Part shown: one piece after another, positions 11,542 through 52,539 of the stretch
Layout: every line of letters begins with the position of its first letter
Numbering within the stretch: the first letter of the stretch is position 1
Source of the DNA: Prorocentrum cordatum
Taxonomy: Eukaryota
Assembly: GCA_963575745.1 (NCBI GenBank)
Contig: CAUYUJ010000225.1
Coordinates: 310,001-374,000 of the forward strand
Length of the DNA: 64,000 bases
Direction of reading: 5' to 3'
Made by a program: the position numbers and the translations under genes
Notes under the pieces: generated by a model
What the model saw: only the letters and a program-made list of their open reading frames with translations
Database searches by the model: none
Told to the model about the DNA's origin: nothing

Positions 11542-11959
11542 AGCAGCATCATCATTATCATCATCATCATCAACAACATCATCATCAGCATAACCATCCT
11601 CCTCCTCATCATCATCACCATCATCATCGTCATCATCATCAACAGCAGCACTACCACCACCTGCAGCATCAACATCAACATCAACATCAGCATCACCATC
11701 GGCAGTATCATCATCGCCATCATCACCACTATCCTCACCTTCATCATCAGCAGCATCATCATTTAATAGCCATCATCATACTCATAATCGTCATCACCGT
11801 CATCACCTTCATCTCTTCATCATCAGTATCATCATCATCATCAGCATCATCGTCATCATCGCCACCATCTGCATCATCAGAACCATCACCATCATCATCA
11901 GCAGCACCATCATCATCATCATCATCATCATCATCATTATCATCATCAGCACCATCATT

Positions 11960-12015
<56 letters not shown>

Positions 12016-29472: not shown

Positions 29473-29497
29473 TGATGATGATGATGATGATGATGAC

Positions 29498-29579
<82 letters not shown>

Positions 29580-29625
29580 CTGATGCTGATGCTGATGCTG
29601 ATGCTGCTGCTGATGCTGATGATGC
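29473..29625 (+). repeat. (GAT)n/(GCTGAT)n microsatellite
   Basis: Direct reading. Confidence 0.97.
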
Positions 29626-30026: not shown

Positions 30027-31869
30027 CTTTCTCTCTCTCTCTCTCTCTCTTTTTTTTTTTTTTTCTCTCTCTCTCTCTCTCTTTTTCTTTATCGTGTTCT
30101 ATATATATCTCTTTCTCCCGCTCACACATCGGAACCCCTTGGTCCCTCGACGGCTGTGCAAGCAGAGGTCCTGGCAGAAGATCTTCGAGTACTCCGAGTC
30201 CCTGGGGAACGCGGACGAAGTAAGCTCCTCACGCGCGTCGACCTCACATCAGCGGGCTCGACTCATCTCGACTTCCCGTGGCGATCCTCCCTGGCTCGGG
30301 ATCGGAGGTCTTCAAATGGTCCAGTGACCACACGATCTGTGAATTGGAGGTGGTTCAAATGGCTTGGGACCAAGTCCAATGAGCATGTGTCAAGCTCATG
30401 GGGCCTCCTGGGTCCGAGAACAGTCTGGCGACAGTGCGTCCAACGGGGTCTTCGGGATTGCGAGGTCATCGGACCTGCTGTTACCACACGGACTGAGATC
30501 CCCAACTGGAAATCAAGGACCTCGCCGCCTGCTGCCCTCCAGAGACAGCAGCAGCGGCGGCAGCATCGCTTCTCTCCCCTCTCCCTCCAGCCATCGCTCC
30601 TACAAGCAGGAAGGATCAGAGTCCAGAGTCATCAGGGCGGGGGGTGGTGAGGGATAGCGCCTGAGTCGAGCCTCGGGGACCCAAACTGGAATTGCCCCGG
30701 ATCGGAGTTATCCCGGATAATTCGGGCGTCCAACCACTCCCGAACCATCGGGGCTTGGGGTGGTCAAGGGTAACTCCTGGTTCGTGCCTCGGGGGGCCCA
30801 AACTGGCGTTACCTCAGACTGGAGCTGCCCCAGATAATCGGCAGCGGGTCCTGAGGGAAACGGGTCCTGGATCCCAGGGCCTTCCCCCAAGACCCAGGAC
30901 CAGCTCTCTTCATCCTGAGTCGCTTTCTGGGAAAATCTCGGGGCCCTGGGAGGGCCCCGGGAAGCCGATAACGGCGAAAAGCCACCGGACCCGTTTCCCT
31001 CAGCACTCGCTTCCTTCACGGCGACTCCCTCTGCTTCTCCCCACCCAACCGCCTCCTCGTCCCCAGAAGATCTTATAAGGCTTCTGGGAGGTCCGCGGAG
31101 GCTCCCCGAGGACCGGTTCGTCATCCCGAATCGTTCTCGTCACGGTCCAGAGCGGGGCAGGGCCCCCGAACGCCGGAAACTGCCGAAAGCCTGCAGACTT
31201 TGCTTTACCACGACGCGAGGATGTCAGGGCGTCTCCCCCTCTGGCCTCTCCGTCGCGCCGCCTCGTGCCTCGTACGCCCCTCCGTCCTTTCTGGAAGCCG
31301 CAGGGTTAGTCAGCAGCGAGTCGGAAACTCGGATCGGATCGGAACGTGCGGCCTGCATCGGCACGACGTCGACATCGGATCGGAGCGGCGGCGCCAGGGC
31401 GCACAGCGGCGCCGTGCGAGCACCAGGGGGGGCGAATGGGGGAAGAGCGGAGGTGGAGAGGAAGGGGAAAAGGGGAAGAGGCCAGATGGGAGGAGGAGGA
31501 GGAGGAAAAGGAGGAACAGGAGGACGAGCAGGAGGAGGAGGAGGAGGAAGAGGAGGAGGAACAGGAGGACGAGCAGGAGGAATAGGCGGAGGAGGAGGGG
31601 GAGGAGGAGGAGGAGGAGAAGGGGAGGATCGTCGGAGCATCGGAATCGAGACGGATCGATCGGATCGAAATTGGCCCTTCCCTCGTGCATCCCGCCCTTC
31701 CCTCGCCGATGGAGCGCGCTGTGACAGGAAGCTCCATCCTGAGACTCTCCTCCCGTATTTTCCTCTCTCTCTCTCTCTCCTCCTCGCTTCGCCTCCTCCC
31801 TCATCCCCCTGTTCCTTCTCCTCTTCCTCCTCCCCGTCCTCATCCCTCACTCCCTCCTTCCCTCCGTCC

Positions 31870-31891
31870 TCCGTAGCCATTTTGGCTCAAG
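31870..31891 (+). other. Complete dinoflagellate spliced leader (DinoSL) integrated in the genome
   Basis: TCCGTAGCCATTTTGGCTCAAG is an exact match to the consensus DCCGTAGCCATTTTGGCTCAAG. It follows a CCT-rich tract and precedes a long ORF. Confidence 0.95.
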
Positions 31892-32178
31892 GCTTGGGTG
31901 CCGTACCAGGTACGGCGACCTCTCCAGGGGCGGCAGCCACGCGCGCTGGCCCGCGCCCCAGTCCCGCGCGATCCGCGCCTGGGCGGCCCGCGGCTGGCCG
32001 CGCCCGCTCGCGCAGCCCTCCGCCTGGCCCGCTTGCTTGGCTCGCTGGCGTTGGACCTCCCAGGCGCGGGCGCGCCGAGCCCGCGTGGCATCGGCGAGCG
32101 CGCCTGAGACGTGCACAGTCGCGCACGCTGCTGCGGGTCGCGGCCGCCGCGCGCCTCCTTGCTGCCCACCACAGTACC

Positions 32179-33711
32179 ATGGGCAAGGGAGGCAGCGGCA
32201 AGGGCCGCACGGGCGCGACGGGCGGCACCGCCCCCCCGCCGTGGCAGGGCGCGCCGCCGCCCCCACCGCCAGGCTGGTGGTGCGACGACTGTGGTGGCTT
32301 CAACGGCCCACAGGAAAGGCTATGCAGGTGCTGCTACCCAGGCCCTTCGGGCCCAGTCGGAGGAGGCGGGCATGGAGGCCCACCGCAGCAGCGGCAGCAG
32401 CAGCAGCAGCAGCAGCAGCAAGAGCATCATCCCCGCCGACGGAGCTCGACATCACCAGGGACGCCAACCCGCCGACGCTCCGTCTCCCGCCGCCGCAGAC
32501 GTGAGCGCGAGAGGCGAGAGGAGCGTCCGCGGTCGGGCTCGCGTGTACGCTTCGCGGATGAGCCCGAGCCCGACCCCGACGGCAATGGCGTCTCGGATGC
32601 CGACGAGGAGGTGCGCAGCCCAGCGCTCGGGATCCTCCCCGCGCTGCCGCAGGATGCGAGGCAGCACCCAACGTGGGTTGACCCTCCCAGCGACGAGCGC
32701 GCCTTGGCGGCGCACAGGCGGGCATTACGGCAGATTGCAGCTGCGACAGGGAAGCGCCTTCAAGCTTCCATCGACCTCGGGGCATCCGAGGAGATCATCA
32801 CAAGCCAGAAGCTGGAGTACAGCGTCCAGCTATGCATGATTATCACGGCCCGTGCGCCAGGTGAGCGCTGTGACCGCCAACGAGCCTACGTCGCCAAGGC
32901 CCTTGGCAAGCTCGAGCGTGCCCGTGAGGCGGTCGACAAGGCGCAGGAACGACTACAGGAGGCCGAGTCGAAGTGCACGCAGCGCGAGAAGGAGCATGAC
33001 AGGGCCAAGATGCTGCTGGACCAGCTCGAGGCGATGCAGGCAGGCCATGCGGCTGGAGGTGCAGCCGGCGACGTGGACATGGGCGCGTACGTGGAGGGCA
33101 CGCAGACGCCAGAGGCTGGAGGCGCGACGCCTCAGACGCCTCAGGGCATGCCTGTGCAGCTGGCGGCCATCGCGGAGCTCCAGAGCGGCCAGGCGACGCT
33201 CACGGCCCAGCTCAGCAGCTCGACGGCAATGCTGACGACGCTGCAGACGGCGATGGCGGCAGCAAGGACCCCAGCAGCTGCCGCCGAGGTCCCAGTCCCA
33301 CCTGAAGGCGGCGGCCCGCAGGTCAGGCCCTTCGCTGGCCAGCCCCAGCGACTGGGCCGCATGCCGACGGCCGAGAAGCTCGCTGCTGCACCCGCCTCCG
33401 AGGCCGCGGTAGCGAGCCCAGTCGACGGAGCAGCTGACCCTGCAGCTGCCGCCGGCCCCGCGCCGCCCGCGCCCGCGGCAGCTGACGGTGCACCAGCGGA
33501 GCCTGCAAAGGCCGACGGCGAGGACCTCGCAGTGGTGCGTGCTCGTGCCGCCACGGCACGCCGCGCCAAGCGCGAGCAGGCGCCCGCCGGGCCAGCCGCT
33601 GCTCGTGGACGCCATAGCCAGGCAGCAGCAGCTGGGCGGGCATCGAGGCCGTGGCAGCATCCCGGCCCCAGCTGGACGTGCAGACATCGCAGCGGAGTTC
33701 GGCGACCATGA
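32179..33711 (+). CDS. Intronless ~510-aa protein with a RanBP2-type zinc finger, poly-Q/RS-rich linker and coiled coil; resembles a retroelement ORF1
   Basis: First ATG after the SL (MGKGGSGKG). WWCDDCGGFNGPQERLCRCC fits W-x-C-x2-C-x3-N-x6-C-x2-C. Heptad region AYVAKALGKLERAREAVDKAQERLQEAESKCTQREKEHDRAKMLLDQLE. Strong GC3; the frame is open from the SL itself. Confidence 0.75.
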   Translation: MGKGGSGKGRTGATGGTAPPPWQGAPPPPPPGWWCDDCGGFNGPQERLCRCCYPGPSGPVGGGGHGGPPQQRQQQQQQQQQEHHPRRRSSTSPGTPTRRRSVSRRRRRERERREERPRSGSRVRFADEPEPDPDGNGVSDADEEVRSPALGILPALPQDARQHPTWVDPPSDERALAAHRRALRQIAAATGKRLQASIDLGASEEIITSQKLEYSVQLCMIITARAPGERCDRQRAYVAKALGKLERAREAVDKAQERLQEAESKCTQREKEHDRAKMLLDQLEAMQAGHAAGGAAGDVDMGAYVEGTQTPEAGGATPQTPQGMPVQLAAIAELQSGQATLTAQLSSSTAMLTTLQTAMAAARTPAAAAEVPVPPEGGGPQVRPFAGQPQRLGRMPTAEKLAAAPASEAAVASPVDGAADPAAAAGPAPPAPAAADGAPAEPAKADGEDLAVVRARAATARRAKREQAPAGPAAARGRHSQAAAAGRASRPWQHPGPSWTCRHRSGVRRP

Positions 33712-34861
33712 GACGGAGGCGGCGGCGAGGCGGACGCGGCACAGCCGCGACCGCAGCCCCCGCAGGCCCGACGGCTTCGAGATGGTCGGCGGCGCTGGTG
33801 CAGAATCGACGGGAGAGTCGACACTGGGGTGATGCAGCAGGGCAGGCGAGCTGCCGGGAGTGAGATGCCTGAGCCATCTCATAGCTCGCCTGTGGCTGCC
33901 AGCGCAGCCGACTTAGTGTCAGAACCCCTCGATCGGATGGAGTCCGATTCGCCTCCCCTCCTCGCTCCAGGCCGCCTTCGCCCTCCCTCCTTTGCCTACC
34001 CCAGTCCAGCTAACTGATCCAGCGTGCTGAGGCCAGAGATAGACGCAAGGCGTGCCTTGCCGTACGCATAGCTCCATGGACGTTGCAGCCAAATTTCGGC
34101 AGCAGCATCTTGGACTAAGTAGAAGGATGGGTGGAGGTTAGTCGGAGGGTCAGGTGGGTTCACGATTACTCTCTCGCCGCCAGCCGCCCTTTCTCCTGCC
34201 GCACTGCTGTCTGCAAACATGAAGTTATATACGTGGTGTTGACCCTACCACCAAATATGCCAAGTACGTCAGAGGCGGCTGATGTCAAGCATGCCTCCAT
34301 GGCTGGTGCTAGGGATGTAGCAGGTACAGCGGATTCAGGTCCAGGCCCCTGGAATTTGTCACGGAACTCTCTACTCAGATTGTAGGAAACATCTTGGGAG
34401 TTTCGATAGGGCGCTGAAGCTTCTATACTGCTTACCACGGTCGTGTCCTGCCGCACGCGCATTTCTATGGACGACGCAGCCAGATCTTGGCAGCGGCATC
34501 TTTCGCCAGTAGAAGGTTGGAAGGAGTTTCAGGTTCAGGATGGGTGCAGTTTGTGGAAGGATTACGAGCGAGGAAGCGACCCGCTCCTTTTTATCGCTCT
34601 CTCGCTCTCTCTCCGCCAGCCGCCCCGCCCCTCGCCGCTCCGCACATCATTGTATCCATCCCGCCTGCCCCTCGTGCTGATTGATGAGCCAGACAGATAC
34701 GACGTGCCTGGGTGCGTGTCAGGTCCAGGTGGCCATGGTAAGCAGGCAGCCAGGGCCTACGGGGCAGCTCCGTATCCCCCCCCCCCCGCCCGCGAGGTAC
34801 AGCGGACGGCTCGCCAGCCTGCTAGCGAGCATGCCCTATCTTTCTTGTTGCATGCTACCAG

Positions 34862-34898
<37 letters not shown>

Positions 34899-36444
34899 AG
34901 GGATGGATGCCTGGCGGGTCAGTCGGGTCGTTGAGCAGGATCGGACAGTCAGCGTGCGCACTCTCTTGCACACAAGTCAGCGCCATTTTGGCAGCTTATC
35001 TCTTGCACACAAAGCCTACAGGACCACCGTCTCCCTTTGCGCAGTCTGCTGCCTTGCCCGTCCCAGTCCCCAGTCCTGGCGCAGACCACGATTTCAGTCG
35101 CTGCCAAGCGAGCCTGTTCGCCTTTCGCCCTCTCGCACGGGTCGAGCCACACGGCTGTCAGCGAACGCTACATTCTTGCGTGTCTTAGACCGCGGTGCGT
35201 CTCGTGCATATGGGTTGGATTGGTGGGCAGGATTACTTGATGGAGGAGTTTCTCGGCGCGGCCCGTACACTCTCGCGAGCACTGCTCGTTTGCAGAGCCC
35301 GTGTGTCTTGCAGAGGAGGACCAGCGAGCGAGAAAGAAGAGGGATTAGGGCCCAGGTCTGCGTTCCAGCCTTACCCACTCCTCGTCTTCCTCTTTAGCAC
35401 TTTTCCTCCTCCTCCTCCTGCCCCTACTCCACAGTGCCCAGGCCATTGCTGCAAGCCCCTTTAGCGTTTGCCGGCCAAGCTGAATATTGTTGAGGGTGGG
35501 GGTTCAGGATGGATCGTAGGTGCGAAGATTCCTCCTGCGAGTGCCGTGCGATGGATCTTCCTCCTCGGCCGACGGCCGCCTGACGGCCACCTGTATCGGC
35601 ATAGAGGTTCCACATGGTGTTCCCAATGCGGTACCGCCATGCCTCATAGATGCCAAGCTGAGTCGTTGCCATTCGTCGGCAACCTCGAGCAGGGAATGTG
35701 GTCTGCGTCCCAGCCTTCCTCCTTCCCGCTTTACGTAATTCATTCCTTCCCTCCCTCTGCCCCTCCGCCCGAATGCCCTGGACGGGCACAGCAAGCCGCT
35801 GTCGCAGCTTTCGCGTTTGCCGCCCAGTTGCCCAGCTGAAGGGTGGGGATATTGCGCGGAGGTGGGAGGATTATGGTGAGGTGGGGTTGGTGCACTGGTA
35901 CTGTATACTGCAAACCTTAGGTGCCCGTGCGATCGCACTATTTCTGTTGCATCGCTAGCCGCAGCGCCACCGTAACTCGACAGGCTAGTTGCCTCAACGA
36001 GCAGGCAATCCAAAATCCCTCCGTCCTCCCTCCTCCTCTCCAGCACCCCTGGAGGCCGGCTGTGACAGTCAGTTCAGTCCTGGACCTCTCTCGAGCCACG
36101 GCTGCCAGTGGAGGAGCAACAGCAGCACACACTGGCGGCGCAAACAGTGCGAGTGGATCTCGAGCAGTGTTCGGGGCGTGATGAGCGGACACCTGCTCCT
36201 CTTGCCCTTTTTTCTTGTCGTCGTCTTTTTGTTTTTTCTTGTCATCCTTGTCCTCTTCGTCGTCCTCCTCCTCCTTCTCATCCTCCTGCACCTCTTCTTC
36301 TTCCTCCTCCCTCCTCCTCCTCTTCCCTCCTCCTCCTCCCTCTTCCTCCCTCCATTTCCGTCCTCATGTTCCTCTCCTCCCTCCTCAATCCGTCATCCTC
36401 CCTCTCTCTCTCCTCCCTCCTCCCTCCTCCGCCTCCTCCTCTTC

Positions 36445-36527
36445 AGCATCACGATCACCACCACCAGCATCATCATCAGCATCATAATCAACATCATCAG
36501 CATCAGTCGCATCAGTATTAAAATCAG

Positions 36528-36586
<59 letters not shown>

Positions 36587-36910
36587 CCATCACCTTATCA
36601 TCATCAGCATCAACAGTATCATCAGCATCGTCGTCGTGATCACCACCACCACCATCGTCATAATCAGCATTACCATCATCAGCATCATCACCATCAGCAT
36701 CAGCAGCAGCAGCAACAACATTATCATAATCGTCGTCGTCATCAGCACAATCATCAGCATGATCATTAGCATCACCATCATTATCATCATCAGCCGCATC
36801 ATCGCCAGCATCATCATCATCAGCATCACCGTCATTGTCATCGAATTCGTCATCGTCACCACTAACAGCATCATCCTCAACAGCATCACCATCATCGTCA
36901 GCATCGGAAG
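36445..36910 (+). repeat. Compound (CAT)n microsatellite flanked by (CCT)n
   Basis: Direct reading. Confidence 0.95.
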
Positions 36911-37242
36911 TATCATCCTTACTCCTACACCTGATCCCTCCTCCGGCGCATCCTCCGCCCTCATCCTCGACCATCCTCCTCCTCCTCCCCACCCTACGTT
37001 TTCATCCTCATTCTCCCCCCTCCTCCTCCTCCTCCTCCTCCTCCTCCTCCTCCTCCTCCTCCTCGTCATCATCAACTTCAGCCTTACGAGAGTGTGCGAA
37101 ACAACTGACAGCTCCCTCGCCACGGAACCACGGGGGAGCCTCGGGGCACAGTGACAGGGGCCTCCCTTTTTTCCTCGCGGGCGGCACGGCCAGCTGTATT
37201 TATCTCAAGCGTTGTGCCCCAGCATCCATAGAGGAAGCTGCT

Positions 37243-37446
37243 TGGGAGGCCTGGAAATGGGCACCAACACCAAGACAGAGGGCTGCCTCCACAGGGGGGA
37301 GGTGATCCTAGATTTCGGTGTTGGTGGTAATGTTTCGGCCACCTTGGAAGCCAGAATATTACCACCATCACCGAGATCGGGATCTTCTTCCCTCGGTGGA
37401 GGAATACCGCCGATCCTGGTGTTGGTGTCGACCTCTAGGCCTGCGA
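37243..37446. mobile_element. 204-bp palindromic MITE inserted in terminal repeat B2, with a CTGCT target-site duplication
   Basis: B1 reads GAAG-CTGCT-CAAAC; B2 reads GAAG-CTGCT-[insert]-CTGCT-CAAAC. The insert is self-complementary along its length (CACCAACACCA/TGGTGTTGGTG; TCGGTGTTGGTGGTAAT/ATTACCACCATCACCGA). Confidence 0.85.
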
Positions 37447-37836
37447 CTGCTCAAACAACTCACTGAATTCTGGAGCGAAGCTCCACTCCACGAAAAAAAC
37501 GGAACAGCGCAAAGGGAGGAGGCTGGAAGCCACACGCGCCACGGAAGCAGGCTGAAGCAAAACGTGCACGCACGAGTAGCCTTTGCCTTACGAGCGTGTG
37601 AGACAACTGTCAGCACTCTCGCCACGGAACCGCGGGAAACCTCGGGGCACAGTGACAGGGACCTCCTATTTCACACGGGCGGTGCGGCCAGTTGTATTGT
37701 CTCAAGCGTTGTGCCCCAGCGTCCACAGAGGAAGCTGCTCAAACAACTCAAAGAATTCTGAAGCGAAGCTCCGCTCCACTCGCGCAAACAATTATATATT
37801 GGGGTGGTGGTGGGACCTTCTCCCTAAAAAAAGCAC

Positions 37837-38575
37837 TCACGACAGCACAGCAGCAAAGGATGTAGACCCGAAGCATTCGATGCCGTTGACAAAGGCACTG
37901 GCTAGGGCTCTGGAAAAACGCTTTGGATGCTCCTCGGCCGCTCGAGTCCTAAAACGTCAATTCTCGTCTTTGCTCGATAAAGAGACGTGCTGCTGTTTCG
38001 TTCTGGAGCACCTTCCCTTGCAGAGCTTGCACCTACGGCCTAGAGACTCAAAGGGCAAAAAGCTAGCTACTAAACGAATCAGCCTCATCCAGGGCACGCC
38101 CCATTGACAGAAATCAGTTCGCACGTCACGTTTTCTTGCGCCTTCGTAAGTGAGCCATTTGAGGAGCCTCTTTTTTATGTTTATTGTTTTACGTAGCGAC
38201 GCCACCTGCGCGATACTCACCGTGCTTTTCATTGTTTTGCTGCCGAGCTCAATCTTCCAGGGTTCTCCTTCGTTCCGCAACACCGGAAACCCACGCATGT
38301 TTTCAAGATTCCGAAGAGGCTGCGGACCGCTGGGTCTAGCACAAGCCCGCGACCAGGACGCGCAGGGAGCCCCAAAGTGCATGCCCAGAACGTATCCAGA
38401 CATCACCCAGCCTCTGATGCATCTTACTAAGGTTCGCTTACACATATCGTGCTTGACTCCATGACGAATGCCGATGGCACTTGCAAGGTCGCCGAAATCG
38501 TGACATCTCTCGCGACAGTCTGGCTGTCCCCGAAAAGATCTCAAGCAAGAGCGGCACCATCAAATCACGCATAGG
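37837..38575 (-). pseudogene. Cytosine-5 DNA methyltransferase-like domain of the retrotransposon (disrupted)
   Basis: LLEIFSGTARLSR (motif I-like, ~38510-38550), frameshift, MHFGAPCASWSRA (PC motif IV-like), DFCQWGVPW, Cys/His cluster RCKLCKGRCSRTKQQHVSL, in-frame stop at 37957, then TRAAEEHPKRFSRALASAF. No ENV/ENP-like motif VI is visible. Confidence 0.7.
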
Positions 38576-38628
38576 CCAGTTGGCGCCTGCAGCGGCGCGG
38601 CAGCATTCAGCAGGATCCTCGGCACAGC

Positions 38629-39250
38629 CTACAAACACCTGCCGGCGTACCCCCTCACTAGCACAGAACACCGACATAAGAGCTCGTTGCCGAGGCCGAT
38701 CGCTTCCTCCCGGCCGGAGTCGCGCACGCTCTGCGTCACATTCTCCTTCAGCTCCACAGCGCGGATACTGCGCAGACGCAAGAGGGCCGCGGCCGCGGCG
38801 GGCCAGGCCATCTCGACGGCCTCCTCGAACTTGCCGACCTTCCAGCTCACTCTGAGCGCGAACGGGTGCAGAAGGACTATGGCTGTGACTCCTGCGCCGC
38901 TCGCGACGACGGGCGGGTGGCCCTTTCCCCAGGTTGTCCTCGACTCGCTGACCTGCCTGCCCGCGGTCGAGAACGCCCGCGCTAGTGCGGCCAATAGCCT
39001 GCCGCCCCCGCTGCCCGCCACGCTCTCGACGAACTCCTCGTTGAGGTGCTCGGCGACCGCGAGGTCCAGCTCTGGGGTGCGCATCTGGCCGAGGAACCGC
39101 GCGAGCTCGCCCTGCGTCCGATCGAGCTGGGCCACGCCGACGTCGCGCGCTACAGGCGCGCTCGGTCGGCGAGCCAGCCGCGCCAGTCGACGAAGATACG
39201 ACCACCGCGCCGGCGCCTTCACCGCAATGGTTTCCGGCATAGCGCGCCCC
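38629..39250 (-). pseudogene. Tyrosine recombinase remnant with internal deletions
   Basis: ELDLAVAEHLNEEFVESVAGSGGGRLLAAL resembles the N-terminal binding domain; IVLLHPFALRVSWKVGKFEEAVEM resembles the catalytic-Lys hairpin. It lies directly after RNase H. No HxxR or Tyr box is recognisable. Confidence 0.55.
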
Positions 39251-39544
39251 GGCAGCGCTCGCGCACCTCCGTGAGCGCCCTGACAGCCCCGAACCCGCCG
39301 TCGCACATGATCGGGAACTCCCACGGGCACTTGACGTCGTCGGCCCAGGCGCGCTGCCGGCTGCGGCGCAGGCTCGACCACGTTCGTTTGCAGTGCTGCC
39401 TGCAGCCGGGGGCGACCCCGCATCCAGGCGCTTCCAGCCGACCTGCGACGCCACTCAGAGAGAGCACTCCCCCCTCGCGAGCTGCCCCGCCCCCTGCGAT
39501 AGCTGCCTCCAGAGGCCTCCGGACAGGCACGGCGCAGCCCGCGG

Positions 39545-41778
39545 CGGGAGGGCTCGTCAGCAGCGTCCTTCTCACTCGGTGCCCACCGCGAACACAGCTG
39601 GGCATCCCATAAGAGAAGGATGGCCGCCAACTGGCTCTCGACACGACGCCGGCCTGGCGCGCTGGGCCCCCCTTTTTGGACCGAAAGCAACGCGCCCATC
39701 GAATTGGTCAAAGCCACCGCCCGCGCATCGACATACTGACGGACCTTCGCAATCTCCCCGACGACCCCGACCAGAGTTCGACCTTCAAGACAAGCGGTGC
39801 GTTCATTGCGCCCCCACGCCTCACTGCACTCAGCATGCCACTTTGCAGGCGGCAGACTAGCGTGAAGCCCGGGAACAGGGGGCGCCCCGCGTTCGACCAG
39901 TCCAACGTTCATCTCCATCTCCCCCTTCCTCCTGTAATCCTTCAAGCAGAACGTCTCGGGGGGTTGCCCGACTTCCCCCCGGGAAATGCCGCCCATCGGA
40001 GCATCTGCCAGCCTCGTCCAGCACCTCTGCGAGCGGACGAGCAGCGCAAATCCCAGGACCCCACGGAGACGCATCACAAGCGTATGATTTAGGTCCCCAT
40101 GGTTTGGTGAGGTCGCGCTCCAATAACGGAAGCAACGCCCGAGCCCACCGCAGTTCCCCCAACGCGGCAGGCCACGCATTACTCGGGCGATCTGGGTTCT
40201 TCTCGATGAACACGTACACGGCGCGAAAGCAGGACAGCAACTCCAAACGAAGAATCGCCTGGCGGGCGACGTGGCCCAAGGCATTGCGAAGCGACCTCCC
40301 CGAGCACATCCGCCTCCTGAGAAGAAACTCCAACGCGAGCCACACCTTCCACCTCCTCTCCTGCCGCGGTAGCATCCGCCCTTCTCCTGAATCGCTGAGA
40401 CCGAGAAGATCTCCCCCGACTGCGACGACATCGACCTCATGAGCTTCCAATACCACGGCCCGAACTGCTTCCAGTGACCCGGTAGTGATCTCACGACACA
40501 TCATGTGAACTCGAGAAAACTCAGACATTGTCGACATACACTGAGACGCAACCATCTTCCAGGCCCCCAGTCGGCCTGTGACCCTGTAACAGATCGGAGC
40601 TGGAAAACACCTGACCCAGGATCCTCTCGTGCATCGGCTGACACCGATGCAGCAAGTGCGCCCAGCCCATTGGCATGGCAGAAAGCCGAGGTCGGGCAAT
40701 GCCACCGGTGCGCTCGATATCGGAGCAGCTTCTTCATCCATTTCGCCTTGATGAGGGGGTGGATGGAAAAATGAGCATTTCGGGGGGTGTTCCGAACTGA
40801 AAGAAGGCATCCTTTGAACCGTACTGACCTACATACAGCTGCTCTCCGGCATCAAGTCGCGAACGAGACAAGCCTCCAGCCGTCGGAAGCTCGACGTGGT
40901 CGCAGCTTGAGAATAAGCAATTCGACTGCCGGCAGTCGGCAATAAGACGCTGGGCGCCACTTTTCTTGCGCACAGTAATAAGGCCCACGAAGGCGACGCC
41001 CTCCCCCTGCACAAACTCTACCATGTTCCGTAGGAAACAACATCTCCAACACCGACGCAGATCGACGAGCAGACCTGGGCAAGCCAGGATCATGGCATAT
41101 CTTCATCCCGCTCGCCTCAAGCCGCCGCGAGCCCACTGAGTTTGGCAACGCGCGCTCGCTCACCCACCCTTAGACTTCCTCGCGCCCACTCGGGCCCAAC
41201 AGTTGGCGCACGTCAATGAGGGCCGCCCCTCCTGGCCGAAGCGAGGGCAGAGACTCGCCCAAGGGAACTGCTGGACTCGAAAAAGCCTCGGCCGGCTGAT
41301 GCTCGAAAAAGCTTCGGCCGGCTGGCGCTGGGGAGAGCCAGAGACACCCCCCGCTGATACTCGAAAAAGCCTCGGCCAGCTGAGCATCCGCAGGGGGAAC
41401 TCCCATCCTGCTGCAACATTCACGGAGGTGCCCAGCCCTGTCCCCGCCTATAAAATCAGAGGAGTTGGCAGGAGCCTCGGGAGCGCCACCTAGATACATC
41501 TCAGACAGAACCCAGGCCGCATCCGAACTGAGCCTATTCAACAACTGCTCTGGCGAGTCTGGAAGACTGCTCAGCCCTGGGGGCCTAACAGCACAGATCG
41601 GATACATTTTCTCCGACGCCGTCACCCGAGTAGTTAAATCGCTGCCATTTGCCGCCAGCGTTGTTAGTAGCCGACCTGGCGCGCATCTTGAATGAGCCGC
41701 CTCATCAAGAGGCAGCGGGCCTCTCTGCGTTGCCCGCTGCCGAGGGGGGCCATCCCCTGCAGCCGCGTGCGGGCTCAT
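39545..41778 (-). pseudogene. DIRS-type reverse transcriptase and RNase H (disrupted)
   Basis: VGLITVRKKSGAQRLIADCRQSN, SKDAFFQF, MPMGWAH (~40660), SVYVDNV (~40530), SYACDASPWG, LEGRTL, ALTNSMG and RWAPSEKDAADEPSR. Confidence 0.88.
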
Positions 41779-41837
41779 GACTTCCCACCCCCACCACGTC
41801 CACCTCCTCCGCCTGGGGGCTGGCGGATAAGGGCTCG

Positions 41838-43404
41838 TTATTATCGTGATTTCTTGGCTTGTTTCTGGATCAGCGATTCCTCTTCCAGCTCTTTACTGAC
41901 ATGCTCCACCAGATCTGGCGAGCAGCAGACGGTAGAGTTCACATGTTGGCGCCCCTCAAACAGATCCATCTTATCGCTCGTAATCGCGGGAGGCCCCGCG
42001 ACCGAAGAAACCGCGCCAGCAGATCCTCCTAGCTCCCCATCTCGGACCTTCTCAGGATACTGATATTCAATAGACTGCAGTTGGCGAGCTATCTTCTCAA
42101 TCGCGACAAGGTTTGACAAGTCAAGCTGATCGACACAGCCTGCTGACTCCAAAAATCCGCAGAGTCGAGCGTGTTCGGCAATCCCCCAATCAGCTGCATT
42201 CAATCTCGCCGTTGACCGCCACCACCTATGATGATATATGATGTTCTGAACCTGTGTTACGACGAGCCATGAAGCGAGCCACCCAAGTAGCATTTCTTGG
42301 CCCGTCGATAAGCCAATAGTCGATCGCGCTCACGTTCAAGCTCCCGGCCACACTGTTCCAAGGTCGCTGACGCTCTCTGGTAGGCGAATACTTCACCGGC
42401 AGGACACGAGCATCGCTGGCATCAGCATCTTCCCTCCGCCAAGCATCTGCCCTCGCCCGAGGCACCTTCTCCACCGCAAGCAGATCAGGACCGACGCGAG
42501 CAAGAGCAAGTTTACGATGACCAACACTAGCATCAGGCTGGCCAGCGCACTCGTCACCCGCTGCGATCGTGGCGCTGCTCTCGGTGCAAAGCCAGACCTC
42601 TGGCTCCGCTGCCGCAGGCTGCACGCCTCCGACCGCTAACGCCACAAGGTCCTGAGCCTCCTCCACCAGCCCCTGCAACACGCCTCCAGCTGGCTCAGCA
42701 CCCCGCCTGAAGTTGTACACGTTGGCACTCTGCATGCTGGCTGGGATGCTGCCGTCGGGACGAAAGGTTCGCACCCCTGTGATGTCACCGTTGTTCGGCC
42801 CGTGGTCCTCTTCGTAGAGGTCCCCGTCGGGAGTGTAGATCACCCAGCGAGTATCGCCTACGCTGGCCAGAAGCAGCACAGCGTGCCACAGGTCATCGTC
42901 GTAGCGGACCAGCACCTTACGTCCTGGAGCCAACGACGAGGACACCACCGCTGGCGCCGCCGCCGCGGCTGGGGCGCCCCCACCAGAGCCTGCGCCATTG
43001 CCTATGAACAGCTGCGGCGGCTCGCGACATCTCGCGCTCCTCCTGCCCAGCAGCAAGCCGATCACCAGCGCGACCAGCACCAGCCCGAGCTGCACCTCCA
43101 GCCTGAAGGTGAACGTCGAACCAGTTCCTGTCGCACACTCTGGCCCCTGAAGCTGCTGCGCAACCAGGCGCTCGAGTGCCGCACACTCCGCCGCCTCGCC
43201 TGACCCTATGCACTGGCACACGCAAGGTGGACAACTGTCTTGTGGCGCCGCCGGAATGTCAATCAGACTGTGCAGACCGAAAAGAGCATTTTGGTCAGCA
43301 TTTAGAACAACAAGGGGTCCACCTGCATGCGGACCAGGGAGCCCTTCCGAGCCACACACGCTACGGAAGCAGACTGAAGCAAGACGTGCACGCACTAGTA
43401 CCAT
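41838..43404 (-). pseudogene. gag-like ORF of the YR retrotransposon (frameshift near 42230-42290)
   Basis: 392-aa plus 150-aa ORFs with VLVRYDDDLWHAVLLL, WVIYTPDGDLYEED, DARVLPV, WLIDGPR and DQLDLSNLVAIEKIARQLQSIE. It lies between A1 and the RT. Confidence 0.75.
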
Positions 43405-46400: not shown

Positions 46401-46654
46401 GCGAGGGTGGGTTCTTGGTATGAGGGACCCCACATCTGGGCAGGGATATCCTGATCGACCAGGCCAGCCAACGTTGAAGATAACCCCGAAGGGTCTTGAA
46501 CAGCCCCACGCAATAATGGGAAACAGCTTGATTCTCCCGCGGGCTTATTGACGGATTGGGACCCCGACAGCACTTGGGAATAAATCTTCCCCCGCGGCCG
46601 CCACCGCACGGGCCTCCGCTAGAGACGTCGCCGCCGCCGACGTTGTCATCCCTC

Positions 46655-52020
<5,366 letters not shown>

Positions 52021-52539
52021 AAAGGTTTTGCTAGCGCCGCTACTACAAAGTCCTCCCGCGTGTGGGGTCGCCCAGAAGGCATTGTCGATGGGACAACTAA
52101 CCGCCAAACTGTGTGGAACACGGCGGTAGTATTCTCTGGCGGCGACGGCGACGAAGACGACGACGAAGAGAAGGAGGCGACGACGACGAATACGACGACG
52201 ACGAAGACGACTCGATTGGAGACGCACTGAATTCTATTGCAAGCATTTTGTGCCAACGTGATCGAAATCCCTCCCGCGTGCAGGGTAACCCAGGAGCCAT
52301 TGTCCATTGGGAGAAATTCCCCGGCTCAACGGGCCAAGGGCGTGCTAAGATCTCCGGTAACCGGTTAACAATATTCTAGTTCGCGCGCGCGGGGCCGCCC
52401 CTGGGGGTCCCCGGATGAAAAGTACACCGGGACACCCCCGGGACACCCCCGGGACACTCGGATCAGAGATGGCAGACTGGGCAATTTTTCGACACCCCTC
52501 ACGAGGATCGTGGCCCCCGAGGGGAGGGGCGCAATCGAC

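Follow-up and report, generated by a model that had tools for sequence, protein, structure and literature searches.

DinoSL-tagged retrogenes of dinoflagellates, that is, retroposed genes that carry the dinoflagellate spliced leader (DinoSL), were reportedly described by Slamovits and Keeling in 2008. A DNA-encoded DinoSL is an established mark of retroposed messenger RNAs (mRNAs), as an earlier note on the DNA analysed here had also stated for relict leaders (PMC7245778, PMC6050394, PMC5585692; all papers given by PMC number are cited from excerpts). In two Symbiodinium genomes, approximately 23% of all genes are retroposed ones tagged with a spliced leader (SL), according to Song et al. (2017, PMC5585692). 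Here, a DNA-encoded DinoSL and the gene copy behind it are characterized in a stretch of 64,000 nt from Prorocentrum cordatum (assembly GCA_963575745.1, contig CAUYUJ010000225.1, positions 310,001 to 374,000 of the forward strand). This stretch is referred to as the window, and all coordinates are positions within it. The locus is best read as a DinoSL-tagged processed retrocopy of a host gene with a complete 5' end, a reading to which we assign a probability of roughly 0.6, and the copy is probably decaying. As SL-tagged retrogenes are very common in dinoflagellates, the locus represents expected biology rather than a new mechanism.

The leader, TCCGTAGCCATTTTGGCTCAAG, occupies positions 31870-31891 of the plus strand and is a complete DinoSL (22 of 22 nt). 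Scanning the 64-kb window with the 21-nt core as query and up to three mismatches returned this site as the sole match, and none of 100 dinucleotide-preserving shuffles of the window contained one. The DinoSL at this position is therefore real and beyond chance. The 15-nt truncated form of relic SLs was likewise located at a single place, which is the same site. Upstream, the leader is flanked by a C/T-rich tract without assigned strand (approximately 31740-31869, G+C about 0.60) that contains TCCGTCC directly before it. The perfect 22-nt DinoSL directly behind a CCT tract, which the earlier note had reported, is thus present as described and is unique in the window. Measured over intervals of 100 nt, the G+C content steps from 0.60 (31800-31899) to 0.82 (31900-31999) at the 3' end of the DinoSL, ranges from 0.61 to 0.82 through the open reading frame (ORF) and falls to 0.58-0.50 past 34000. 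By this profile the copy is a compositional island, with the DinoSL as its 5' edge. The core word of the leader, CCATTTTGGC, occurs again on the plus strand at 34983-34992, approximately 1.1 kb past the ORF stop, where 12-13 of the 22 SL letters match. This second copy may have been left behind by another retrocopy long ago, or it may match by chance.

The main ORF begins with the ATG at 32179 and extends to 33579 on the plus strand. Its G+C content is 0.77, 0.61 and 0.76 at the first, second and third codon positions, respectively, with a drop at the second position to 0.38-0.57 in 32500-33130. Among the 13 long ORFs of the window that were checked, it alone shows a coding-like composition. 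The codon-position G+C and the protein homologs together identify the ORF as a real gene copy. It is collinear with its homologs and shows no intron-like breaks, as seen in single tblastn matches to the homologs P0008 (over 32068-33648) and P0006 (over 32227-32868). In this respect, the intronless ORF that had been proposed holds up against the protein homologs. Its proposed extent does not, since the ATG frame, if left unchanged, stops at 33709-33711 and not at 33830.

The reason for the shorter frame is a break at 33577-33583 (plus strand). The homolog P0018 follows the ATG frame to approximately 33590 and then goes on in the +1 frame over 33575-33814 (tblastn, E 8.7e-14), including the conserved C-terminal motifs. 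Compared to P0018, the window is short by approximately four residues near 33577-33583, and additionally by a base count there that is not divisible by three. The conserved C-terminal segment (HRGRGSIP...RHSRDRSPRR..., 33578-33832, plus strand) is encoded one base after the ATG frame and terminates with the TGA at 33830-33832. This second frame is open over 33413-33832. The earlier note had treated the interval to 33830 as one frame and thereby overlooked the frameshift, for the last approximately 250 nt lie in the next frame.

Three public sequencing runs contain part of the stretch (X1-X3). All of them are DNA runs and none is an RNA run; X1 contains 0.41 of the sampled words. Distinct X1 contigs overlap at the same ORF positions (four at 32784, for example). 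The ORF therefore exists in at least two versions, where contig depth in X1 does not equal copy number and alleles, strains and paralogs are indistinguishable. Among the 15 differences listed between related contigs and the window inside the ORF (171 further differences are outside this listing), 11 are silent third-position changes and four change a residue. Mostly synonymous differences fit purifying selection on the protein, and they do not separate a host gene from the ORF of an active element. Downstream of the break, all five of the listed differences are silent and affect the third codon position of the second frame, which indicates that the relatives use this frame for coding. Contigs from X1 and X2 end at approximately 33580-33593, and none of the contigs listed from X1-X3 spans this interval; these ends hint that the relatives carry extra letters there. 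As judged from its sequence, the window copy would encode a protein lacking the C-terminus of the family. Provided that the indel is not an error of the assembly, the copy is more probably a young retro-pseudogene than a functional gene.

A 383-nt contig from X1 aligns to 31890-32264 (11 mismatches, one gap of 12 nt), and the match begins at contig letter 21. Similarity is found from the AG at 31890 onward only, so in a closely related copy this AG is preceded by sequence other than the SL. Such an arrangement would be expected of a parent gene at its trans-splice acceptor and is taken as a hint of one. In two other X1 contigs the SL runs into different sequences, which suggests other SL-bearing loci. 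The retrocopy reading follows from the full DinoSL, the G+C step, the intron-free collinear ORF and the SL-less relative that loses similarity at the AG. Of the earlier proposal of a recent, 5'-complete retrocopy of a trans-spliced, ORF1-like transcript, the retrocopy is the best supported part and the recency fits the undecayed leader, whereas the ORF1-like part is not borne out (see below).

In the proposed course of events, a host mRNA from a dinoflagellate-specific family would have received the 22-nt leader by trans-splicing. The encoded protein would start with a RanBP2-type finger near its N-terminus, continue with an Arg/Ser-rich tract and a conserved helical core that includes a coiled coil, and end in an RS-like C-terminus. 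Reverse transcription of the mRNA would have been carried out in trans by the enzyme of some retroelement, and the resulting complementary DNA (cDNA) would have been inserted into a C/T-rich, repeat-rich and gene-poor stretch. The insert would have kept the leader, an untranslated region (UTR) of 287 nt and the first ATG, and a frameshift near 33580 would then have removed the conserved C-terminus from the copy. The parts of this scenario that we infer are reverse transcription as the origin, the existence of a parent gene and of its AG acceptor, the status as a pseudogene and the role of the family. Transcripts consisting of DinoSL, CCATTTTGGCTCAAG and GCTTGGG... would come from a retrocopy that is re-spliced at its internal AG, and transcripts consisting of DinoSL and GCTTGGG... 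from the parent.

Several observations weigh against a retrocopy. The 20 unmatched letters of the 383-nt contig are not displayed, so the acceptor site is deduced rather than seen. None of the contigs listed from X1-X3 bridges 31891/31892, which leaves the junction of SL and leader without independent confirmation. The DinoSL is directly followed by GC (AAG and GC at 31889-31893), and GC after AAG is also a legal donor of an SL RNA gene (PMC6616646). At the other end, related X1 contigs pass the stop codon and cover the presumed 3' UTR as far as 34062 or beyond. This untranslated part (33833-34030, plus strand, end undefined) declines in G+C from 0.64 to 0.58-0.50, is C/T-rich at approximately 33950-34003 and contains no A-run. 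No remnant of a poly(A) tail was detected in 33833-37000, where neither a run of six or more A nor an A-rich 20-mer occurs. There is also no convincing target-site duplication at the locus; the 70 nt before the leader share a single word with the downstream region, the C/T-rich 10-mer CTCCCTCCTT, and this word does not adjoin the leader. The insert has no defined 3' end, and the candidates are approximately 33950 (start of the C/T-rich stretch), approximately 34026 (start of the similarity of one contig) and beyond 34062 (reached by a related contig). In the excerpts of the dinoflagellate retrogene surveys, poly(A) and target-site marks are absent from the definition used (including PMC7245778). 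The adjacent sequence at 34030-34400 is repeated and occurs in up to seven different X1 contigs, a further count against the reading. One X1 contig loops from 34357 back to 34034. A separate repeat family, probably a tandem one, therefore abuts the copy.

The repeated downstream flank implies that duplication at the DNA level may be involved. The locus would then be a segmental or tandem duplicate, flanks included, of an older retrogene that had gained its leader once and elsewhere. We regard this as rather unlikely, but it is kept alive by the missing poly(A) and target-site duplication, the undefined 3' end and the repeated flank. It is further in line with the related X1 contigs that reach at least 34062, with the copies of the following 350 nt in up to seven contigs, and with the fact that dinoflagellate genes are commonly multi-copy (PMC7245778). 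However, the only related contig over the leader lacks the SL, and the G+C step is located exactly at the leader. The downstream repeat, moreover, is maybe an unrelated family, as the match of one contig begins only at 34026.

An artefact of assembly or library preparation, in which cDNA-derived sequence or a mis-join at low complexity put an SL-bearing mRNA beside a C/T microsatellite, appears quite improbable. The junction does adjoin low-complexity DNA, it is the place that the listed contigs fail to bridge, and in X1 the SL runs into other sequences (two contigs) while the leader is preceded by non-SL letters (one contig). On the other hand, the window does not contain a single N, and in X1 contigs the upstream C/T tract is connected with the beginning of the SL (joints 31833>31867 and 31833>31871). 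As X1 contains only 0.41 of the sampled words and a differing copy of the leader, little weight attaches to the missing bridge. A fresh cDNA contaminant would also not be expected to show the frameshift or to lack poly(A).

The earlier note had further suggested an ORF1-only non-autonomous retroelement. Under this proposal, the family multiplies via retroposition of its own leader-capped mRNA, with a reverse transcriptase (RT) acting in trans and the T-box of the leader perhaps serving as promoter. A basal promoter in the DinoSL of full-length retrocopies is proposed in PMC12014239, as far as the excerpt extends. Spelled out, a DinoSL mRNA with a conserved, possibly cis-acting block at 32068-32178 would be copied repeatedly into the genome by RT supplied in trans, as an RT-less, leader-capped retroposon. 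The T-rich box of the leader would drive re-expression of each full-length copy, and a young, already frameshifted insertion would be present in the window. We consider the proposal very unlikely, in its general as well as in its detailed form. It can draw on the presence of more than one ORF version in X1 (such as the four contigs at 32784), on the nucleic-acid-type finger, basic tract and coiled coil of the protein, and on the absence of an RT in cis. The latter had been claimed before and was confirmed: a search of the whole window, covering 126 ORFs with 150 or more amino acids (179 ORFs minus 53 with an entropy of at most 3.4, which are microsatellite translations), revealed neither RT nor endonuclease, and the same applies to 51 plus-strand ORFs with 50 or more amino acids overlapping 33700-42000. 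The only match among the ORFs of 33700-42000 was a sub-threshold SR-25 match within a microsatellite.

The remaining evidence points away from a retroelement. BLAST of the region against the window yielded the self match and one weak match of 95 nt, so the region is single copy in the window, and repeat finders detected only satellites and microsatellites there. None of the listed contigs revealed a further copy of the region that starts at the same SL, the sole relative that covers the leader is without SL, and neither poly(A) nor a target-site duplication is present. The relatives are 18-47% identical across genera. None of the 18 protein matches described below is fused to an RT, the longest being 597 amino acids in length. 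Domains of ORF1 type (RRM/CTD, CCHC) were not detected by Pfam in the window protein (E<=1) or in 10 homologs (E<=0.1). Pfam, Foldseek and VIA revealed no ORF1-type domain or fold but plain helices. In these searches no resemblance to an ORF1 protein of long interspersed nuclear elements (LINEs) was seen, so the label 'ORF1-like' is without evidence. A leader-capped retroelement was not found described in a limited check of excerpts from the SL and retrogene literature.

The least probable alternative, namely that the 22 nt are the donor exon of an SL RNA gene or pseudo-SL gene with a GC-starting intron, lying by chance upstream of a family gene, would account for the full SL followed by GC (SL genes of Fugacium continue with GU or GC, PMC6616646) and could include the perfect 17-nt palindrome (8+1+8) at 31900-31916, 8 nt past the DinoSL, but the following 287 nt contain no TTT and hence no U-rich Sm-type site, the leader is single copy in 64 kb with no array and with no 5S or other RNA family in the window, the relative keeps the downstream sequence and the palindrome without the SL, and this downstream sequence runs straight into the conserved ORF. 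A viral origin was rejected by inference from the G+C content of 72%, the microsatellite-rich surroundings and the homologs in dinoflagellate nuclear genomes.

Under the preferred retrocopy reading, positions 31892-32178 (plus strand) are the 287-nt 5' UTR of the copied mRNA. This part begins with GC, has a G+C content of approximately 0.8 and contains neither an ATG in any frame nor a TTT. The predicted RNA fold of SL plus leader is unremarkable (z = -1.42; 6 of 100 shuffles equally good). At the gathering score, Rfam reported nothing in the window (no 5S and no other RNA family), and for 31700-32200 it gave just two chance-level mir-H2 matches (E 4.3 and 6.7). The first ATG in any frame past the DinoSL is the one at 32179, as had been noted, and its context is ACCATGG. 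The absence of an upstream ATG together with this context fits an ordinary scanned start codon. In contrast, the claim that the SL opens a stop-free frame could not be upheld. The frame is already open from 30919, approximately 950 nt before the DinoSL, and runs stop-to-stop through microsatellites including (GGA)n. Given the composition of the leader, the probability of encountering no stop in 95 codons is 0.44, and two of the three frames between DinoSL and ATG are open. The stop-free frame therefore carries no weight.

Within the 5' UTR, a conserved block in frame with the ORF is found at 32068-32178 (plus strand; GRAEPAWHRR...LLRVA...AHHST, including AEPAWHRRARLRRAQSRTLLRVAAAARLLAAHHS). 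In the tblastn alignment with P0008, 24 of 34 residues of the block are identical, compared to 32% over the entire P0008 match. In P0008, the same stretch lies within the predicted ORF, downstream of an upstream Met. For the near-identical X1 contig, all 10 of the differences listed fall in 31926-32051 and none in 32052-32264; if they were evenly spread over 375 nt, the chance of such a distribution would be approximately (162/375)^10 = 2e-4 by our own arithmetic. The identity to P0008 and the skewed differences indicate that the block is under constraint. It is either a coding N-terminal extension, with a non-AUG start or with an upstream start that was lost in this form of the mRNA, or a 5'-UTR element. 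A block in the 5' leader that is more conserved than the protein itself is a small puzzle that deserves attention.

The N-terminal part of the protein contains a C4 zinc finger, WWCDDCGGFNGPQERLCRCC, at residues 33-52 (32275-32334, plus strand), identified by its spacing pattern and the family profile. It fits the pattern W-x-C-x2-4-C-x3-N-x6-C-x2-C, which we take to be the RanBP2-type spacing, and the residues W, C, N, C and C are invariant in four family members. A finger profile built from four sequences matched solved structures in the PDB, with Nup153 ranking first (E 3.5e-10; best single finger i-E 1.7e-5), followed by RanBP2 (1.3e-5) and, more weakly, by TAB2 (9e-4) and then RNF31, RBM10 and ZRANB2. 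On the basis of the matches to the solved Nup153 and RanBP2 fingers, the assignment as a RanBP2-type finger, already made in the earlier note, is accepted. Pfam did not recover it on the window copy, where no finger was reported for the protein at E<=1 or for the finger alone at E<=0.1. The family PF00641 was detected below threshold in the distant homologs P0016 (21.0 bits) and P0017 (16.1 bits; cut-off 27). Apart from a zinc-ribbon match in two distant homologs and coiled-coil-type families, all of them sub-threshold, Pfam returned nothing for the family (10 homologs, E<=0.1).

The finger is followed by an Arg/Ser-rich basic tract (32419-32553, plus strand) with 18 R and seven S in 45 residues. 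The family-defining core, delimited by the family alignment and AlphaFold, extends over 32626-33057 on the plus strand. It consists of the motif LGxLPALPxxARxHxxWxxPP (32626-32688, family alignment), a helical hairpin (32695-32847, AlphaFold) and a helix of 67 residues (32857-33057, AlphaFold), the latter being a probable coiled coil. For residues 125-294, AlphaFold with an alignment of 15 sequences predicted an all-helical structure (hairpin, then the 67-residue helix) at a mean pLDDT of 86.7. This prediction is consistent with the coiled coil that had been noticed in the sequence. Foldseek found no match of the core in the PDB at E<=1e-3. In a wide VIA search the best Z was 7.2, among tied coiled-coil and helical-hairpin entries. 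The single finger beside RS-like tracts and the oligomerising helix suggest a role as a nuclear adaptor with RNA, Ran or ubiquitin as binding partner.

When 1.84 billion representative proteins were searched exhaustively with HMMER, 18 matches were obtained at E<=1e-3, nine of them at E<=1e-10. Three of the 18 are fragments with 84-94% identity to the window protein, and the others are 25-57% identical. When 10 of the matches were looked up, two turned out to be named, both as 'unnamed protein product' of Prorocentrum cordatum and one of them also under Polarella glacialis, and the remaining ones are encoded on contigs of 0.9-4.1 kb. The family is small, previously undescribed and dinoflagellate-specific. 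In the alignment, the common order is zinc finger, Arg/Ser-rich tract, acidic stretch, LGxLPALPxxARxHxxWxxPP, a helix region with EYxVxLxMIIxARxPGxRCDRQR, the long helix, AIAELQSGQ...LTTLQT and the C-terminal HRGRGSIP...RHSRDRSPRR. One fragment, P0004, which is a relative of 32840-33050 with 84-87% identity, is labelled as Pyramimonas sp. (a green alga) in EukProt; this label is probably due to dinoflagellate contamination of that transcriptome.

Other searches added little to the family. In a word-index protein search, none of 8000 scored candidates passed for the whole window protein (P0001) and none of 3204 for its residues 140-300, and with the family alignment as query two close fragments were the only result. 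These searches were probably swamped by low-complexity words. No usable match for the family was obtained in the ESM Atlas. Similarly, single-protein scans of metagenome contigs (window core and P0017), scans of viral contigs (P0008 and window core) and a search of prokaryote genome contigs for the exact 31-nt pattern of SL plus leader returned nothing.

The retrocopy is located in a gene-poor, repeat-rich region. Among the other ORFs of at least 150 amino acids, none contains a Pfam domain above the cut-off, and the 12 further long ORFs that were checked all lack a coding-like codon-position G+C. Microsatellites are abundant throughout the window; examples are (GGA)47 (31489-31628) and (TCA)n (36443-36905). 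A (TGATGA)n microsatellite is found at 29473-29624, 11863-12014 and 55091-55800, with inverted copies 17-26 kb apart. Large satellite arrays with 9- and 12-nt spacing occupy 46600-52100 and 62800-64000. Their G+C content is 0.39-0.47, with a strong skew of C over G (to -0.64), while the window has otherwise 56-65% G+C.

The locus offers a clean first-generation example of an SL-tagged copy, with a complete leader, a sharp boundary and a possible parent copy. It could help to clarify the way in which such cDNAs integrate, in this case with neither poly(A) nor a target-site duplication. It also draws attention to a dinoflagellate-only family, as yet unstudied, in which a RanBP2-type finger occurs together with RS-like tracts and a helical core that is predicted to fold with confidence.

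Compared to known systems, the finger profile matches those of Nup153, RanBP2/Nup358 and, more weakly, ZRANB2. ZRANB2 combines finger and RS domain, and an Arg/Ser-rich tract likewise follows the finger in the family described here. Unlike in these proteins, there is a single finger, PF00641 is not reached on the window copy and the remaining protein is without known relative. LINE-1 ORF1p is composed of a coiled coil, an RRM and a CTD. The family protein and ORF1p or ORF1-only LINE derivatives have in common that they are basic, probably oligomerising and equipped with a long helix, and that RT is not encoded in cis. In contrast to LINE-1 ORF1p, no RRM, CTD or CCHC signal was obtained here with Pfam and the fold search, and the locus shows neither poly(A) nor a target-site duplication. 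With the SL RNA genes of dinoflagellates (PMC6616646), the locus shares the full SL followed by GC; it differs in having no U-rich Sm-type site, array or 5S, and in the conserved coding sequence that follows. From the DinoSL-tagged retrogenes (PMC5585692, PMC6050394, PMC12014239), it is distinguished by a leader that is complete and single instead of a truncated or tandem relic, by the frameshift and by the lack of a visible poly(A) or target-site duplication. What it shares with them is a DNA-encoded SL located 5' of an intron-free ORF, an arrangement for which reverse transcription and re-integration of a trans-spliced mRNA is the accepted explanation.

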